In this document: positions 5,556-13,075 of the stretch, one piece after another
Layout of the letters: every line of letters begins with the position of its first letter
Numbering within the stretch: the first letter of the stretch is position 1
Assembly (NCBI GenBank): GCA_052168235.1
Contig: JBQLZK010000113.1
Location: 1-13,075 of the forward strand
Length of the DNA stretch: 13,075 nucleotides
Direction of reading: 5' to 3'
From: Thainema sp.
Lineage (GTDB): Bacteria > Cyanobacteriota > Cyanobacteriia > Phormidesmidales > Phormidesmidaceae
The notes under the pieces: model-generated
What the model saw: only the letters and a program-made list of their open reading frames with translations
Database searches by the model: none
Told to the model about the DNA's origin: nothing
Translations under genes and position numbers: made by a program

Positions 5556-5996
5556 ATGCAGACTGGTGGAACAAAACGCTTCATTTTGGTACTAGATCAT
5601 AATCCTGAGCATGTTGATACTATCCAGCGATCCCTGTGCAGCAGCGGCAAACCTTACCATCTAGAAACGATTGGCGATGGCGATCGTGCTTTAGATTTCT
5701 TACATCGTCGTGACCCATACAGTGAAGCCGCTCATCCTGATTTAATCCTGCTGGATCTCAATCTGCCGGGACGGAATGGTAGAGAAATTTTGGCTGACAT
5801 TAAGACCGACAGCAGCCTAAAGCGAATTCCCACGATTGTATTCACGGTATCCGACAGCGATGCTGACATTTTGTACAGTTACACCCACCAAGGTAACTGC
5901 TACGTGGTGAAGTCGTCTGACTTGGAGCAGCTATCTCAAATTGTCAAACGGATTGAGGATTTTTGGCTGGAAATTGTGACATTGCCAGTGGAGTGA
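5556..5996 (+). CDS. Single-domain response regulator, Rcp1-like paralog with atypical acidic pocket
   Basis: PDLILLDLNLPG, NCYVVK and C-terminal FWLE as in the Rcp1/RcpA family. LVLDHN replaces the usual LVEDN. Confidence 0.88.
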   Translation: MQTGGTKRFILVLDHNPEHVDTIQRSLCSSGKPYHLETIGDGDRALDFLHRRDPYSEAAHPDLILLDLNLPGRNGREILADIKTDSSLKRIPTIVFTVSDSDADILYSYTHQGNCYVVKSSDLEQLSQIVKRIEDFWLEIVTLPVE

Positions 5997-6513
5997 AGGA
6001 AGTGCTGCTCTCGTTAGGTATAACTTTTGTGTTGTTGTTTAAACTTTGCGCTCGAAACTAAAATTTACGCAGCTTTTTCTAGGGATTTACTGCTAAGAAA
6101 ATGACCAAAATTCGTGGCTAATCAAAACTTAGAATTGATTTAAGATTTCCCTTGGTGGTTTAAAAATCATCCACGCTATGCTGCAAGTGTGTGGCCTGTG
6201 GTGATAGCCCAAGTCGCTATTGGTATAAGTTTCTTTGGCATCAGTAGGCGAACGTAATTCAAAGCACAACAGTTCCCATGACAGAAGTTCACACGACAGA
6301 TCTAAGCTTGGTTGAATTAGTTGAATTAAAAGTAAGCAACCCAGCGTGAATATCTTAATGCTGGATTTGCGATCGCATCATCCATTCCCAAACATCCTCA
6401 AAAAAGCTGCCTACTGATCAAGTATTTCTACTCATCTGTCGGACTCACCAGCCTCATAAAAACCGAACACTAGAAGCAAACATTCACAATCTTAATGATT
6501 GGGAGATCTCCCT

Positions 6514-8835
6514 ATGACCGCAGTGAATTTAAATCAAGAAATTAGTCTTGCGGGACTTAACCTAACCAACCTAAAGCAGCCGGATATTAATACGTTGACT
6601 CAAGTGCAGCCTCACGGTGTGCTGTTGGTATTGCAGGAGTCAGATCTAACCGTGCTACAAGTGAGCCGAAATACCCGCACAGCACTGGGATTGCCGCCAG
6701 AAGAGGTACTCGGCAAAACTCTAGATGACTTACTCGATCCCTATCAGGTTGATCAATTCCGGACTGGACTGTATTACGAAAACTTGGACATTATTAACCC
6801 GACTAAAGTTTGGGTGAAGCGCCAGGGAGATGACTACGGCGTTTACGATGCCATTTTTCACCGCAGCGCAGATGGGTTCTTGATTGTGGAGTTGGAACCC
6901 GCTCTGACGCAGGAAACTATTCCCTTCCTGAGCTTTTATCACCTCGCTAGAGCTTCGATCAGCCAGCTTGAGGCAACGCCGAATCTAGTGGATTTCTGTC
7001 GCATCATTGTCCATGAGGTACGTCGCGTCACTGGTTTTGACCGGGTGATGCTCTACAAATTCGACGATGACGGTCATGGTGAGGTGCTAGCTGAAGAGTT
7101 AGTTGAGGGTATGGAATCCTATCTGGGTCTATATTTCCCAGAATCAGATGTACCACAGCCTGCCCGCAAGATGTTCCTCTCCAATTGGATTCGGGTGATC
7201 CCCGATGCCAAGGCGGAACCTGTCGATTTGTATCCGGCCAATAATCCCGTGACGGGCCAGCCAACGGATTTAATCATGTCCGTTCTGCGTCAGCCCTACC
7301 GCTGCCATATTGAATACCTCAGCCACATGCAGGTGGGATCGTCGCTGACCATTTCGCTGATGAAGGATCAGAAGCTCTGGGGTCTAATTGCCTGCCACCA
7401 CCGTACACCCAAGCAGGTGCCTTACGAACTGCGGAAAGCCTGTGAATTTCTGGGTCGGGTGATTTTCTCTGAAATCTCCACCCGCGAAGAGGAAGCCGAC
7501 CATAACTACCGGATGAAGCTGGCTCAGGTGCAGTCCCGGTTAGTTGACCGGATGGCGCAGGAAGACTACTTCGTGCATGGTCTGGTGCAGCAGGAGCCGA
7601 GTCTGCTGGACTTGGTTGACGCCAAAGGGGCCGCGATTTGCTTCAACGGTCACTGGACAACGATTGGCCGCACGCCGTCTGAGGAAGAGTTGAACTATCT
7701 GGTGCAGTGGCTGAATAAGACCGTCGATGGCGAGATTTTTGAAACTAGTGCGCTGCCATTGGTTTACTCCGATGCCCAGCGATTCAAAGACGTAGCCAGT
7801 GGTTTGCTCGCAATCCCGATCTCGAAGCGCAGCTACGTGCTGTGGTTCCGACCGGAAGTCATTCAAACCGTCAACTGGGGCGGCGATCCGAATAATGCTT
7901 ACACATTAGAAGGTGAAGCTGACAATCAGTGGCTCTGTCCCCGTAAGTCTTTCCATCTCTGGAAAGAAACAGTAAAGCTGCAGTCGCTGCCCTGGAAATC
8001 GGTGGAGATTCGGGCGGCACTAGAACTGCGTAAAGCAATCGTCAACATTGTTCTGCGACAGGCGGAAGAGTTGGCCTTACTGGCTCAGGATCTGGAGCGT
8101 TCGAATGCCGAGCTGAAGCGGTTTGCCTACGTTGCGTCCCATGATTTGCAGGAACCGCTAAATCAGGTGGCTAACTTTGTGCAGCTTCTGGAAATGCGCT
8201 ACGATGCCGAGCTGGGTCAAGACGGTAAAGAGTTTATTGGCTTTGCCGTTGAGGGCGTCAGCCTGATGCAGACCCTGATCGACGATGTATTGGCCTATTC
8301 CAAGGTTGATCTGAAGGGGATTGATCGGGAGCTGATCGACGTGCAGGATTCGCTGGATCAAGCGATGAATAATCTGCGCGGACGGATTGCGGACGCCAAC
8401 GCTGCGATTACCGTGGATTTATTGCCGACCATCGTGGCCGACGGCACGCAGCTCATGCAGCTCTTCCAGAACCTGATTGGCAACGCGATTAAGTTCCGCA
8501 AGCCGTCAGAGCTACCGCGCATCCACATTGGCGTGCAGCGTCAGGAAGATGCTTGGCTGTTCTCAGTCAAGGACAACGGCATTGGCCTTGACCCACAGTT
8601 TGCCGAGCGCATTTTCATCATCTTCCAGCGGCTTCATACTCGGGATGAGTATCCCGGTTCCGGTATGGGACTGGCGATCTGTAAGAAGATTGTCGAATGT
8701 CATCGGGGCCGCATTTGGGTTGAATCCCAAGTGGGAGAAGGCGCAACGTTTTATTTCACCATTCCGGTTGAAGGACGCGATCGCAATCATGGTAATGGAC
8801 GAAAAGCCCAAACGTATCTTTTTGATCGAGGATAA
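6514..8835 (+). CDS. cph1: Cyanobacterial phytochrome (Cph1/CphA type): PAS-GAF-PHY-HisKA-HATPase
   Basis: QPHG PAS start, GFDRVMLY, PESDVP, bilin-binding Cys in the GAF domain (YRCHIEY, codon 7303-7305), LWGLIACHH, WGG and PRKSF tongue, H-box ASHDLQEPL, N/G1/F/G2 boxes. ATG 6514 follows GGAG at 6502-6505. Confidence 0.95.
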   Translation: MTAVNLNQEISLAGLNLTNLKQPDINTLTQVQPHGVLLVLQESDLTVLQVSRNTRTALGLPPEEVLGKTLDDLLDPYQVDQFRTGLYYENLDIINPTKVWVKRQGDDYGVYDAIFHRSADGFLIVELEPALTQETIPFLSFYHLARASISQLEATPNLVDFCRIIVHEVRRVTGFDRVMLYKFDDDGHGEVLAEELVEGMESYLGLYFPESDVPQPARKMFLSNWIRVIPDAKAEPVDLYPANNPVTGQPTDLIMSVLRQPYRCHIEYLSHMQVGSSLTISLMKDQKLWGLIACHHRTPKQVPYELRKACEFLGRVIFSEISTREEEADHNYRMKLAQVQSRLVDRMAQEDYFVHGLVQQEPSLLDLVDAKGAAICFNGHWTTIGRTPSEEELNYLVQWLNKTVDGEIFETSALPLVYSDAQRFKDVASGLLAIPISKRSYVLWFRPEVIQTVNWGGDPNNAYTLEGEADNQWLCPRKSFHLWKETVKLQSLPWKSVEIRAALELRKAIVNIVLRQAEELALLAQDLERSNAELKRFAYVASHDLQEPLNQVANFVQLLEMRYDAELGQDGKEFIGFAVEGVSLMQTLIDDVLAYSKVDLKGIDRELIDVQDSLDQAMNNLRGRIADANAAITVDLLPTIVADGTQLMQLFQNLIGNAIKFRKPSELPRIHIGVQRQEDAWLFSVKDNGIGLDPQFAERIFIIFQRLHTRDEYPGSGMGLAICKKIVECHRGRIWVESQVGEGATFYFTIPVEGRDRNHGNGRKAQTYLFDRG

Positions 8836-9235
8836 TCGGGGCGATATTCGACTGATTCAAGAAGCCCTCAAGAGCAGTAATGTACCTTGCGAGGTCGAGA
8901 TTGCTCGCGATGGCATGGAGGCAATGGCCTACCTGCAGCAGGATGGGGAAGATGCGATCGCACATCGTCCCGACCTCATCCTGCTGGACTTGAACCTGCC
9001 GAAGAAAGATGGTCGGGAGGTGCTAGCTGAAATCAAGGCTGACGAAGCGCTCAAGCACATCCCGATTATCGTGCTGACGACATCCCGCAATGAGGAGGAC
9101 ATTAGCAAGAGCTATGATCTATACGTGAACTGCTATATCTCCAAATCGCGGAATCTAGCGCAACTGTTCAAAATCGTTCGAGGGATTGAGGCATTTTGGT
9201 TAGAGACAGCCAAACTACCGTCCAACGGCCCTTAG
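8789..9235 (+). CDS. rcp1: Phytochrome cognate response regulator Rcp1/RcpA
   Basis: IFLIEDNRGD, PDLILLDLNLPKKDGREVL, VLTTS, NCYISK and FWLE motifs; directly follows cph1. Start is ATG 8789 or 8795, overlapping the cph1 3' end. Confidence 0.93.
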   Translation: MVMDEKPKRIFLIEDNRGDIRLIQEALKSSNVPCEVEIARDGMEAMAYLQQDGEDAIAHRPDLILLDLNLPKKDGREVLAEIKADEALKHIPIIVLTTSRNEEDISKSYDLYVNCYISKSRNLAQLFKIVRGIEAFWLETAKLPSNGP

Positions 9236-11271
9236 GCAAACCGCTCGTCAACGTCCTGCTGATTGAGGACAATGTGGCAGAAGCTCGTCTGATCCAAGAA
9301 GTCCTCAAAGGAACGCCACGCAGCCGCTTTGTCCTGTCCCACGCCAAGCGCTTGGGAGAAGCGATTGAGCGGCTCGGTGCTGATTCGTTTGACGTGGCAC
9401 TGCTGGATCTGACGCTGCCGGACAGTAGCGGCTTGGAGTCCCTGGATCGGCTGATTCGGGATGCGCCAACTCTGCCGATTGTGGTGTTAACGAACACCAA
9501 CGATGATGACTTAGCCGTGGAAGCGGTGCGGCACGGAGCGCAGGACTATCTGATGAAGCGGCAGATGAACCAAGAGCTACTGGTGCGATCGCTGCGCTAC
9601 GCGATTGAGCGCAAGCAAACCGCTGTAGCGCTGCGGCAGGCGAATGAGGCGCTGGAAGAGCGGGTGCAGGAGCGCACAGCCGAGTTAGAAACGGCCAACG
9701 AGCAACTGCGCCAAGAAGTCGTGCAGCGCCAGCGGGTTCAGGAACGGCTGACGTTGGCTCAAAAAGCAGCCAAAATGGGCGCGTTTGAGTGGGATATCCC
9801 CTCGGATCAAATTAGATGGGGCGTGGAATTAGAGAAGAGCGCAGCACAGACTACTGCTGATTCACTCGCATCCTTGAAATCCTCTGTATCAGGCAGCTTT
9901 GGCAACTATCAGAGCAAATGGATCTGGACACTGGATCCCAATGACTTAGAGCGAGTTGAACAGGAATTGCACCAAGCTGTCCAGTCCGGACAGGGGTTGA
10001 ATACAGAGTTTCGTATTTCTGATGATGCAGGCAAGGTGCGGTGGATTGCGATTCAAAGCAGCTTATTTACTAATGTAGCGGGCCATCCTCTACGGCTGCT
10101 GGGCATCTACATGGACATTACCGAGAAGAAGCACCTAGAAGAACAGTTCCTGCGGGCGCAACGGCTGGAAAGTTTAGGGACGCTTGCTAGCGGCATCGCT
10201 CATGATTTAAACAATATCCTAACCCCCATTCTACTAGCAGTCCAACTGCTACCTCGTATGATGCCCCATCTCAATGAACCAACTCGTCAACGGCTAGAAA
10301 TTCTAGAAAATAGCGCTCACCGAGGCGTTGATTTAGTGAAGCAAATTCTTGCGTTTGCCCGAGGAGTAGAGGGTAAGCGCTTCAGCCTGCAAGTTAGCCC
10401 GCTGCTGAAGGAAATTAACAAGTTAGTGCGGCAAACGCTGCCCAAGTCGATTGAAATTCAAGCTGACATTGATCCTAATCTGTGGACGGTGTCCGGCGAT
10501 GCGACTCAACTGCATCAGGTGTTTATGAATCTCTGCGTCAATGCCCGCGATGCGATGTCGAACGGTGGCACGTTGCAAATTACGGCAGAGAACAAGCTGG
10601 TGGATGAGCAGTTGGCTCAACTGCATTTAGAGGCACAGGTTGGACGCTACGTCCTAATCACCATCAGTGATACGGGCTCCGGCATTCCACCCGATATTCT
10701 GCATCGAATTTTCGACCCCTTTTTCACGACTAAAGAGGTTGGTAAGGGTACGGGACTAGGTCTATCAGCGGTTTTGGGAATTGTTAACAGCCACGGTGGC
10801 TTTATTGATGTCGTGAGCGAAGTAGGTAGTGGCAGCCAATTTAAGGTTTATTTACCAGCAACGGAGGAGGCTGTGCCCAAACCGATCGATTCCCTGGATC
10901 TACTGGCTGGACATGGCGAGTTAGTTTTAGTCGTAGATGATGAACCTGCTATCTGCGAGATTACCCAGACGACGCTCGAAGCCTACAATTATCGAGTAAT
11001 AACAGCTCAAGATGGCGCAGATGCGATCGCACTTTTAGCGGAGCATAAAGACGACGTTTACAGCGTCCTGATGGATTTAATGATGCCCAATATGGATGGC
11101 CTGTCAGCTATTCCAGTTATGCGCCGCATTAGTCCTAATCTACGAATCATTGCCACTAGTGGCTTAAACTCTACCGATGCTGCTGCCCAGGCCGAAAAGC
11201 TTGGCTTTCAAGGCTTTTTACCAAAACCTTTTGCGGCACAAGAATTACTACAAATTTTGAGATCAGAGTAG
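9196..11271 (+). CDS. Hybrid sensor histidine kinase (REC - coiled coil - PAS/PAC - HisKA - HATPase - REC)
   Basis: N-terminal REC (LLIEDN, LLDLTLPD), PAC motif (RWI...MDITEKK), H-box GIAHDLNNIL, N-box NLCVNARDAM, FDPFFTTK..GKGTGLGL, C-terminal REC (VVDDE, LMDLMMP, KP). The TTG 9196 start is uncertain. Confidence 0.93.
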   Translation: MVRDSQTTVQRPLGKPLVNVLLIEDNVAEARLIQEVLKGTPRSRFVLSHAKRLGEAIERLGADSFDVALLDLTLPDSSGLESLDRLIRDAPTLPIVVLTNTNDDDLAVEAVRHGAQDYLMKRQMNQELLVRSLRYAIERKQTAVALRQANEALEERVQERTAELETANEQLRQEVVQRQRVQERLTLAQKAAKMGAFEWDIPSDQIRWGVELEKSAAQTTADSLASLKSSVSGSFGNYQSKWIWTLDPNDLERVEQELHQAVQSGQGLNTEFRISDDAGKVRWIAIQSSLFTNVAGHPLRLLGIYMDITEKKHLEEQFLRAQRLESLGTLASGIAHDLNNILTPILLAVQLLPRMMPHLNEPTRQRLEILENSAHRGVDLVKQILAFARGVEGKRFSLQVSPLLKEINKLVRQTLPKSIEIQADIDPNLWTVSGDATQLHQVFMNLCVNARDAMSNGGTLQITAENKLVDEQLAQLHLEAQVGRYVLITISDTGSGIPPDILHRIFDPFFTTKEVGKGTGLGLSAVLGIVNSHGGFIDVVSEVGSGSQFKVYLPATEEAVPKPIDSLDLLAGHGELVLVVDDEPAICEITQTTLEAYNYRVITAQDGADAIALLAEHKDDVYSVLMDLMMPNMDGLSAIPVMRRISPNLRIIATSGLNSTDAAAQAEKLGFQGFLPKPFAAQELLQILRSE

Positions 11272-11289: not shown

Positions 11290-11649
11290 CTACGCAGGTC
11301 TTCTTTGAATCTGTTGGGTAGTGTCATCAAAACTGCGATCGCATCTTCGGTTTGCACGGTCTGATTGGCCTAAGCCGTAATTTCGGTAACAGTGCCAGAT
11401 GTGGGAGCCTGAATCATACGCAGGTCGCCAACTGGCCGAATGATGGCCGGAGCCTTGGCCGTGACGCTGTATTTGAATAAGCTCGCAAACGTCAACTCCC
11501 CCCCAAAGAGGCCGAGCAAGGCGATGCCGCCCAGTTTCGACCAGCGAGAAATGGGCGGCAAAAACGCGTCGGGGGTGACGGCTCGGAGTAGTATGGGCGG
11601 CTTAACGGTCACATCTGGAGAATCAAAAATTGATGAATGATCAGAACAT
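11290..11649 (-). pseudogene. Truncated HlyD-family membrane fusion protein of the cyanobacterial peptide-export (type I secretion) type
   Basis: FLPPISRW, a transmembrane segment, KYSVTAKAPAIIRPVGDLRMIQAPTSGTV. In-frame TAG at 11370-11372, after which similarity continues (ANQTVQTEDAIAV). A 1-nt frameshift at about 11329-11332 then gives DDTTQQIQ. The rest of the gene is missing. The start region is probably also frameshifted (ATG 11649 is out of frame with GTG 11612). Confidence 0.85.
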
Positions 11650-11838
11650 GAGGCTCATCGCCCAGGTTAAATGATCATAGGATTTCAGCTTAACTCGAAT
11701 ACGCTCATTGTTACCTCCCTGAAGATCGGCCTGAGTCTCTTCAGGAATTTCACACCATAAATTATTACTGGTGAGGCTGTTGCTGGCGCAGGATATTTGA
11801 TGATCTTTTATCTAACTATGTTGTGAATCTAATGTCAT
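11641..11838 (-). pseudogene. Double-glycine leader peptide gene 5 (core resembles ribosomal protein uS10 N-terminus), interrupted by an in-frame TAG
   Basis: Manual translation: MTLDSQHS*IKDHQISCASNSLTSNNLWCEIPEETQADLQGG|NNERIRVKLKSYDHLTWAMSLMF*. GGAG lies 8 nt before ATG 11838. TAG at 11812-11814. Confidence 0.75.
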
Positions 11839-11862
11839 TGATTTCACTCCCAAATATCGCGA

Positions 11863-12027
11863 TTAGATACCACTTTGTTGAGCAACGTGAGTTAGTTCAT
11901 GGGCTAGAAGACTGGATCCTCCAGAGAAAACTTGTGTCTCACAATCAGACAATTCAGTAAAATGCTTAGTCAGGTTTTCAAGATTAGAGCATTTATTTTG
12001 CTTATTTTGCTTATTTTGCTTATTCAT
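11863..12027 (-). CDS. Double-glycine leader peptide gene 4, 54 aa (core resembles the DUF4157 HExxH motif)
   Basis: Manual translation: MNKQNKQNKQNKCSNLENLTKHFTELSDCETQVFSGG|SSLLAHELTHVAQQSGI*. Intact ORF below the ORF-track size cutoff. Confidence 0.85.
   Translation of the reverse strand: MNKQNKQNKQNKCSNLENLTKHFTELSDCETQVFSGGSSLLAHELTHVAQQSGI
11993..12024. repeat. 9-bp tandem repeat (TTATTTTGC) x3.5 encoding NKQ repeats in the leader of peptide 4
   Basis: Copies at 11993, 12002 and 12011, plus a partial copy at 12020. Confidence 0.9.
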
Positions 12028-12163
12028 TGTTCTCAATTTAATTCGAGATCACCCAATCTGCGATCGCAGCCCCATCTCTAAACGATTCTGGAAGTGCGAT
12101 CGCAAACTCTAATTCAGGTTAAGACAGCCAGATCAAAAAACTGAATTTCAAACCTGGAGCTTA

Positions 12164-12318
12164 TCAAGTACCACCTTGTCCTGAACCATCACAAGGAAAC
12201 GAGTAGCCGAAATCTTTGCCTCCGCTAAGAGTTGATTGCGTATCGTTCGACAGCTCTTGCCAAAGTGATGGTTTAGTTAACAAGTGTTGGGGGAAGGCTT
12301 TGCAATATTACGTTTCAT
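12164..12318 (-). pseudogene. Double-glycine leader peptide gene 3 (core resembles the PsaB FX-binding loop), 1-nt frameshift in the leader
   Basis: Adding one base to the G5 run at 12289-12293 gives MKRNIAKPSPQHLLTKPSLWQELSNDTQSTLSGG|KDFGYSFPCDGSGQGGT*. As written, the ATG 12318 frame stops after 13 codons. An in-frame TTG could give a shorter leader. Confidence 0.8.
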
Positions 12319-12378
12319 AGGATTTTCCAGTTACAGCAAAGTGTCTGACGATAAAGGATACAGCTAGAGCTGCTAGTC

Positions 12379-12600
12379 TTACGCATCCACACGTCCGCGC
12401 AAAGTTGCAAGTTCCGCTGAAAACTCTTCTTGGAGCCGTTGGGTGTTACTGGTTGCTGCCGCAAAGAGGAAAATTACGCTGCCGCCTGAGATTGCTTCCG
12501 TTTCGTTTTCTGAAAGCTCTATTGCATCAAGGACAGGCAAAAGCTCGAGTTGATTTTGGTGTTTACCAGGTAAACCGTTTCTAAATTTTTTATTCTTCAT
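12379..12600 (-). CDS. Double-glycine leader peptide gene 2, 73 aa (core ends in an SLH-porin coiled-coil motif)
   Basis: MKNKKFRNGLPGKHQNQLELLPVLDAIELSENETEAISGG|SVIFLFAAATSNTQRLQEEFSAELATLRGRVDA*. AAGGAG (12607-12612) lies 6 nt before ATG 12600. Confidence 0.85.
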   Translation of the reverse strand: MKNKKFRNGLPGKHQNQLELLPVLDAIELSENETEAISGGSVIFLFAAATSNTQRLQEEFSAELATLRGRVDA

Positions 12601-12686
12601 GAGCATCTCCTTTCCCTCAAAAGGGAAACAGGCTGGAATAGAATTTATTCGACTAAATTGCAATTTTATGATCGCAAATTTATATA

Positions 12687-12863
12687 CTAAAACTCTCCTC
12701 TCGCATCTGCTTGGACAACAACCTTCGTGAAGGCATCAAACATTCCGCCTTGAATTCTGCTCTGAGTCGTTTCAGGAATATCTTGAAGGAATAATATTTT
12801 CTGAATTTGTAGATATTTAGAAGAAAGCTGTCTCATGTTTGGTTTGGTTTGAGTACAGGCCAT
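12687..12863 (-). CDS. Double-glycine leader peptide gene 1, 58 aa (core resembles the phycocyanin beta N-terminus)
   Basis: Manual translation: MACTQTKPNMRQLSSKYLQIQKILFLQDIPETTQSRIQGG|MFDAFTKVVVQADARGEF*. AAGAGG lies 7 nt before ATG 12863. Confidence 0.85.
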   Translation of the reverse strand: MACTQTKPNMRQLSSKYLQIQKILFLQDIPETTQSRIQGGMFDAFTKVVVQADARGEF

Positions 12864-12965
12864 TGATAAACCTCTTTATAGATGTACAAATGTAGTTGAT
12901 CTATGCAGGCTGGGTGAAACAGCAGATGACTAATAGACTTTATTGGAAGTAAAGTTTTTGGGGTT

Positions 12966-13012
12966 GGAAATTGTTTTGTAGCGCGGCGGAGCCGCGCTAC
13001 AAAACAATTTCC
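12966..13012. repeat. Perfect 22-bp inverted repeat with a 3-nt loop (REP-like / small dispersed repeat, or terminator-like hairpin)
   Basis: GGAAATTGTTTTGTAGCGCGGC-GGA-GCCGCGCTACAAAACAATTTCC. Confidence 0.85.
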
Positions 13013-13075
13013 GATAAGGTCTATAGCGGTTCTCATTCGAATGAGGTACAGTAGCAGTCGTTTATGAACCAGTTG

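Follow-up and report, generated by a model that had tools for sequence, protein, structure and literature searches.

A short cut-out of the eCIS_core (DUF4157) HExxH helix behind a double-glycine leader in a cyanobacterial peptide cassette

In peptide 4, one of five small genes arrayed head to tail in Thainema sp., a double-glycine (GG) leader is joined to the HExxH helix of eCIS_core (DUF4157), cut out of its domain, and the gene stands among sister peptides in which short segments of other conserved proteins are copied behind leaders of the same pattern. The window analysed here comprises 13,075 nucleotides and takes in contig C113 of the host genome (G000) from end to end; photosystem genes and repeated GCGATCGC sites are present.

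Results

The peptide 4 gene and its leader

The gene (P0001; 11863..12027, minus strand) is intact, running from an ATG at 12027 to a stop codon at 11863-11865. It encodes 54 residues, is present as called in a public protein collection, and has an orthologue, P0005. Its predicted mature core of 17 residues (11866..11916, minus strand), SSLLAHELTHVAQQSGI, is the minus-strand translation of this interval and lies between the GG-type leader and the stop codon, with the eCIS motif at 11875-11910 and the HExxH signature at 11887-11901. Contigs of three public runs, one of which may be the source sample, cover the core, and no differences are listed inside it.

Leaders of the GG type have hydrophobic residues at positions -12 and -4 and the two glycines at -2/-1, and this pattern is found in all five window peptides. 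Over the 13 residues ahead of its GG, peptide 4 conforms to the leader pattern seen in its four neighbours and not to the domain, and the last Gly of the conserved part of the leader (11917..11955, minus strand) falls exactly where eCIS_core has its invariant Gly. A 9-nt tandem repeat in the leader (11993..12024, unstranded) yields three NKQ units, where P0005 has one. Between the P0001 and P0005 proteins, ten consecutive motif residues are identical, and six changes are spread across the other seven core positions.

The core is the eCIS_core motif, without the domain

When a 20-residue piece of peptide 4 was compared with Pfam, PF13699 eCIS_core (DUF4157) was the only family matched (28.3 bits; family cut-off 22), and the alignment covered model positions 60-77 of 79, HExxH included. 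The sequence-only reading, which had taken the core for a DUF4157 HExxH motif, is thus borne out. The host itself does encode the corresponding systems, namely five eCIS_core proteins and four eCIS tube genes, the latter on contig C29, which is not the contig of the window. Among 91 HExxH sites in host open reading frames of at least 150 residues, scored without gaps using BLOSUM62, the five eCIS_core proteins rank 1-5 with scores of 50-58, against a best score of 45 and a median of 13 for the 86 other sites; generic HExxH proteins hence match the core less well than DUF4157 does, by a modest margin of 5 points over the best generic zincin-type site. The best 12-mer score of peptide 4 against the host open reading frames was 54, and 12 shuffles gave 32-38.

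In real eCIS_core domains the HExxH is preceded by an invariant Gly six residues upstream (106/106 fragments), and the exact register of the leader GG with this glycine suggests that the eCIS motif may have been captured through recombination at glycine codons. A recent copy of a host gene was ruled out as the origin of peptide 4: nucleotide identity is 23-29/51, and the same codon is used at 1 to 6 of the 10-11 residues in common. A search for a solved structure matching the host eCIS_core domain returned none.

Peptide 4 resembles the eCIS_core proteins in its HExxH and in scoring above the family cut-off. However, some 60 upstream residues, about three quarters of the ~79-residue domain, are missing from it. 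The eCIS_core proteins come with a toxin domain or an eCIS locus, whereas peptide 4 is a 54-residue open reading frame in a peptide array, without an eCIS operon, and its eCIS segment, unlike theirs, stands behind an export leader. Judged by this architecture, peptide 4 is not a DUF4157 protein.

A partly decayed cassette in the host

The five GG-leader genes occupy 11641-12863 on the minus strand and are followed by a truncated HlyD membrane-fusion gene. In peptide 1 (12687..12863, minus strand; core 12690-12743) the leader precedes a copy of the N-terminus of phycocyanin beta (CpcB). Peptide 2 (12379..12606, minus strand, the start being at 12606 or 12600; core 12382-12480) carries a copy of a porin coiled coil; it matches NF033921 with an E value of 8.9e-5, and the leader model NF038167 at 19.3 bits, below the cut-off of 32. 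Peptide 3 (12164..12318, minus strand; core 12167-12217) carries a copy of the PsaB iron-sulphur loop, and is probably broken, since the ATG ahead of it, at 12318, is in another frame. The core of peptide 5 (11641..11838, minus strand; core 11644-11712) resembles the S10 N-terminus and a PsaA helix; the S10 likeness is weak (E 0.044-0.066), yet all 18 of its 18 PDB matches are S10. This gene has an in-frame stop at 11812-11814, which is replaced by a sense codon in one public run. The HlyD gene (11328..11654, minus strand) ends at a stop at 11370 with the rest missing, whereas the copy in genome G007 is full length; contigs of other public runs bridge the truncation, and a full-length paralogue, 82% identical, lies on host contig C41. 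The cassette of this strain is therefore partly broken or decaying in peptide 5, peptide 3 and HlyD, with peptide 4 intact, and so selection on the peptide 4 copy may be relaxed.

A C39-peptidase ABC exporter, two AraC-type genes and more GG peptides lie at the end of another host contig, C46. Because the ends of C46 and of the window contig both touch one small transposase contig, which we take to be IS630-like, we infer that the array and this exporter form one cassette split by insertion. A promoter and terminator scan gave results at chance level.

Several other features of the host were noted. A multi-copy element of about 92 bp (12932-13023), with a perfect 22-bp inverted repeat (12966-13012), has near-identical copies on at least eight other host contigs and also in G007. 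The region 5556-11271 encodes a phytochrome-type histidine kinase (6499-8835), response regulators and a hybrid kinase, which we take to be ordinary. A solitary GG-leader open reading frame at C12:101030-101287 (plus strand) has a 13-residue core without a recognised source.

Related cassettes in other genomes

In genomes G060 and G231, as in loci L097 and L098, exporter, AraC gene, peptide array and HlyD follow one another contiguously; in G007 this layout is spread over two contigs. The C39-peptidase ABC transporter and HlyD are thus linked contiguously in G060 and G231; in the host, with the exporter on C46, the join is the inferred one. Motif-copy cores were found in nine genomes of at least four families (duplicates counted once), of which G014 and G071 showed the LLLPAVQ type alone. 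They occur in 4 of the 80 closest exporter loci, and a leader-plus-PsaA/B peptide outscores the photosystem genes themselves in 6 genomes of a 401-genome class sample. On these counts the motif-copy system is rare and patchy.

Some of these cassettes have features of their own. In G007 a protein with collagen repeats and a Peptidase_S74 domain is inserted within the peptide array (L034:10732-12126, minus strand). In G060 (L069:3433-5373) and G231 (L210:10779-12716) a PatA/PatG-type protease lies between the array and HlyD, and could cut multi-motif cores into single motifs; the PatA-like protease is above the TIGR03895 cut-off in G231, and none was seen in the other cassettes read. A core of the TIALSLIF...GLGLGIGGG type (L034:12750-12953, L069:6341-6634, L210:9271-9483) is conserved, under purifying selection and without a family match. 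In the same cassette, at 5900-8700, L097 and L098 carry further GG peptides, a second group, whose cores are rich in Trp, Arg and Cys and have no host protein match.

Copied motifs are shuffled between cores

The sources of the cassette cores include PsaA/B, CpcB, porin, ATP synthase c, PilA, thioredoxin, EF-Tu and S10. Beyond the segments in the window, ATP synthase subunit c is copied in its loop and its C-terminus, PilA in its N-terminal helix and EF-Tu in its N-terminus (one core, E 0.009 against the host gene), and there are copies of thioredoxin and of a second porin segment; for PilA and EF-Tu, the source is our own assignment from reading the host open reading frame sequence. The CpcB and S10 copies are closer to the proteins of other organisms than to those of the host. 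A G[KE]IRGTLL motif at first assigned to CHRD domains proved to come from ATP synthase subunit c. At E<=0.01, host proteins were matched by 19/62 cassette cores, 0/70 cores of other exporter loci and 3/620 shuffles, a contrast that is inflated because the cassettes were chosen for having matches, and in which the cassette relatives are not independent; more than half of the cassette cores are without any match.

The copied segments recur in different combinations, namely AtpH+PsaA+eCIS, porin+PilA, CpcB+porin and eCIS+VgrG. In the first of these, the AtpH loop, the PsaA loop and the eCIS motif are joined within one 49-residue core, and in two of three close copies of this peptide the eCIS motif has been lost by frameshift, in one or two events. 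The last is peptide P0262, a leader-plus-eCIS-motif peptide with an added VgrG stretch (E 0.03). The copied set, as had been proposed from the window alone, thus spans conflict-system as well as photosynthetic proteins; it is also wider than that proposal, in that housekeeping proteins belong to it. P0156 has, in our reading, a possible likeness to Hcp.

The host also encodes, at C25:62779-70719 (plus strand), a 2646-residue RTX-repeat protein whose linker contains two LLLPA[VI]Q motifs. The GG-peptide cores of G014 and G071 are made of this motif, which is presumably of Planctomycete pilin-like origin. Motif display may reach as far as giant secreted proteins.

Selection on the copied segments

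We have compared nine orthologue pairs of sister peptides. The copied segments gave pN 0.066 and pS 0.204 (pN/pS 0.32), against pN 0.210 and pS 0.296 (0.71) for the rest of the cores and pN 0.108 and pS 0.246 (0.44) for the leaders, a contrast inflated by the drawing of motif limits by likeness to the source proteins and obtained from pairs that are not independent. For the HlyD fragment, pN/pS was 0.24. The copied segments of the sister peptides are under purifying selection and, with the same reservations as to boundaries and kinship, their lower pN/pS means that capture from a foreign donor alone does not explain the diverged synonymous sites. Since peptide 4 itself is without a DNA-level orthologue pair, selection on its eCIS motif is deduced from the sister peptides and from the P0001/P0005 protein pair.

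Leader-plus-eCIS-motif peptides beyond the cassette

A profile search of short proteins gave 907 matches. Among the best 120, 14 (query included, assigned by reading of the sequences) consist of a GG leader and the eCIS motif, and the rest are mostly domain fragments; the eCIS copy behind a leader is therefore not a lone accident. Among the 14, the leaders are clearly different, the spacer from GG to motif varies from 0 to about 22 residues, and one peptide passes the TIGR01847 bacteriocin-leader cut-off. It is the same short eCIS segment, not the remaining domain, that stands behind these leaders, in a search that had targeted that segment. Some of the peptides, known here from protein sequence, look non-cyanobacterial. 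A different arrangement is seen in P0155/P0017, where a signal-peptide-like N-terminus is followed by four tandem isolated eCIS motifs, together with a weak match, below the cut-off, to TGase_elicitor, the Pep-13 elicitor family (E 6e-5).

Wider searches added little. With the peptide 4 query, the other matches in 151 family genomes were long eCIS_core open reading frames, and the leader-plus-motif profile gave no further short open reading frame among the 150 matches listed for 401 class genomes. Against 1.84 billion representatives, the same profile was dominated by multi-domain eCIS proteins and yielded one new leader peptide, P0099. A DNA pattern of fixed spacing had 0 matches in metagenomes, a metagenome scan with P0262 gave 7 loci with 0 leader peptides, a viral scan gave one match, within an unrelated-looking 198-residue open reading frame, and a plasmid search gave 9 partial motif matches.

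Discussion

Relation to known peptide systems

By its leader and gene context, peptide 4 is of the GG-leader/peptidase-exporter kind. The GG-leader peptides of C39-peptidase ABC transporters, among them bacteriocins, pheromones, CTB and EbfG1-4/PteB (PMC4997328), are alike in the GG leader, the C39/ABC exporter and HlyD; the cores of the motif-copy cassettes differ from those of the known systems in being module-shuffled cut-outs of unrelated conserved proteins. Peptide 4 gave no match to the CTB family NF038167 at its cut-off of 32, and by that cut-off it is not a member; for the window peptides as a group, the CTB and bacteriocin leader models stay below cut-off. For a dedicated immunity gene, as expected of class II bacteriocins and microcins, no conserved candidate was seen in the motif-copy cassettes read by eye. 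The likeness to cyanobactin clusters (PatA/PatG, TIGR03895) consists in the PatA-like protease of the G060 and G231 cassettes, with none in the window; those clusters carry a PatE-type precursor and tailoring enzymes, whereas neither a PatE-type precursor nor a heterocyclase was seen in the cassette stretches read. In listings of the open-access literature on motif strings, mimicry and cyanobacterial GG precursors, we found no account of motif-copy cargo.

Decoys or false signals

The reading that we favour, although tentatively and at somewhat less than an even chance, is that the cassette peptides are secreted as epitopes and work as decoys or false signals. The leader would be cut after GG by the peptidase-containing ABC transporter and the core exported to the medium, as expected from GG-leader biology (PMC4997328), and the AraC regulator would control the cassette. 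Once exported, the core and its sister peptides would serve as linear epitopes that decoy or trigger receptors for abundant, conserved microbial proteins, the candidate receivers being a competitor, predator, host or kin sensor.

Abundance and extreme conservation are common to the motif sources, eCIS_core excepted. Our preference comes from the fit of these sources to the profile of recognised epitopes, from the EF-Tu segment, presumably the region of the plant-recognised elf18 epitope, and from the known antagonism of csp22. Such epitope antagonism is documented for csp22 in passages of PMC10543004. Microbe-associated molecular patterns such as elf18, csp22 and Pep-13 are likewise short linear epitopes from abundant conserved proteins, as is the EF-Tu N-terminus of one cassette core; the known epitopes are, however, released from full proteins and read by plant receptors, whereas the cassette motifs are separate export-tagged genes. 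The epitope receptors known to us are from plants, and we know of none for PsaB, AtpH or eCIS motifs. Counted in favour of decoys or signals are also eCIS_core as the sole Pfam match, the recurrence of leader plus motif in 14 of the best 120 short proteins, the excess of host-protein matches among cassette cores, the free combination of motifs, the lower pN/pS of the copied segments, the dispensable cofactor ligands, the closeness of the CpcB and S10 copies to proteins of other organisms, the fact that no conserved immunity-like gene was seen in the cassettes read, and the tandem motifs of P0155; counted against are the loss of the eCIS motif in two relatives, the decaying cassette, the bias in the pN/pS and host-match contrasts and the unmatched cores. 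A bolder form, which we hold more guardedly still, is that bacteria of several lineages might keep genetically encoded, combinatorial 'universal epitope' libraries, taken from the most conserved proteins of ribosome, ATP synthase, photosystem, pili and injection machines and secreted to blind or fool the pattern-sensing receptors of competitors, predators or hosts.

Alternative explanations

Behind decoys or signals we place, in this order, inhibitors of assembly, captured gene scraps, a chelator and a gene remnant. In the first of these, possible but rather unlikely, the exported cores would enter or contact competitors and jam the parent complexes as dominant-negative inhibitors, the eCIS helix acting against DUF4157-dependent cargo handling. 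Many of the copied segments (c-ring loop, pilin helix, PsaA/B loop, CpcB N-helix) are subunit-contact regions, and microcins and bacteriocins leave the cell by the same route. In a small, non-independent sample, eCIS tube genes are present in 4/5 cassette genomes, the fifth being without an eCIS motif among its cassette peptides read; DUF4157 has moreover been proposed as a loading or chaperone element (passages of PMC11297309). Yet the producer carries the same targets, with no conserved immunity-like gene seen in the cassettes read, and, being located in the cytoplasm and thylakoids, these targets are not easily accessible to an exported peptide. The eCIS motif is also found in tandem in P0155, and another cassette motif in the RTX-repeat protein, carriers unlikely to enter cells.

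It is also doubtful that the peptides are captured gene scraps kept for bulk properties, such as a role in matrix, adhesion or kin-specific signalling, and not for likeness to their sources. GG-leader proteins do act in biofilm formation of Synechococcus elongatus (PMC4997328), and in peptide 4 and several relatives the last Gly of the leader coincides with the invariant Gly of the domain, which suggests capture by microhomology. Motif losses and cassette decay agree with such an origin, and capture from foreign donors would likewise yield diverged synonymous sites. However, amino-acid changes are less frequent in the copied motifs than elsewhere in these cores, and different leaders precede the same short eCIS segment, in the search aimed at it.

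The sequence-only reading had left two roles for the helix, a motif mimic or a minimal metal-binding helix; as a proposal for function the mimic fits, and the metal helix is not supported. An exported chelator of zinc or another metal appears improbable. Both histidines are kept in 17/17 aligned peptides, and a Zn-type HExxH motif is ascribed to DUF4157 in passages of PMC8213781. But conservation of L, T and Q is about equal to that of the histidines, in a set biased by how the matches were found, HQLTH replaces HELTH (Glu to Gln) in two relatives, P0273 and P0274, most sister motifs are without metal ligands, and of the sister PsaA/B copies 4/7 have another residue for the first iron-sulphur cysteine and 1/7 keeps the second. 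With ligands dispensable in relatives, a metal-binding helix is unlikely; sequence or shape, not chemistry, seems to matter, and the metal chemistry looks incidental. HExxH zinc metallopeptidases have a folded catalytic domain and a third zinc ligand, whereas the peptide 4 core ends 7 residues past the second His and has no peptidase family match in Pfam, so that on sequence grounds peptide 4 is not a metallopeptidase.

Finally, a chance match or the remnant of a broken eCIS_core gene, with the GG stemming from the domain, is largely refuted and the least probable of all: a GG ahead of the motif in the same register does occur in 3/5 host eCIS_core proteins and 36/106 domain fragments, but the residues before the GG follow the leader pattern of the neighbours, the relatives have other spacer lengths, and the gene is located in an exporter cassette.

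Significance

The GG-leader export system is already known, a textbook route, and the motif-copy cargo is very unusual: short genes that re-encode stretches of 10-20 residues, the most conserved ones in unrelated proteins, shuffle them and are kept under selection. Since the leader-plus-motif peptides pass the Pfam cut-off, they will be mis-annotated as DUF4157 proteins. The function of DUF4157 is called unresolved in passages of PMC8213781 and PMC11297309, and the eCIS copy would offer a direct probe for it. Should the cores jam assembly, they would amount to naturally occurring peptides that inhibit photosystem I, ATP synthase and injection systems. If they are decoys or false signals, the list of motifs would reveal the epitopes that microbes watch for in one another, and the peptides could serve as bait for the receptors. 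If the universal-epitope reading is true, the cassettes would represent a new class of microbial decoys, pointing to receptors for those epitopes.
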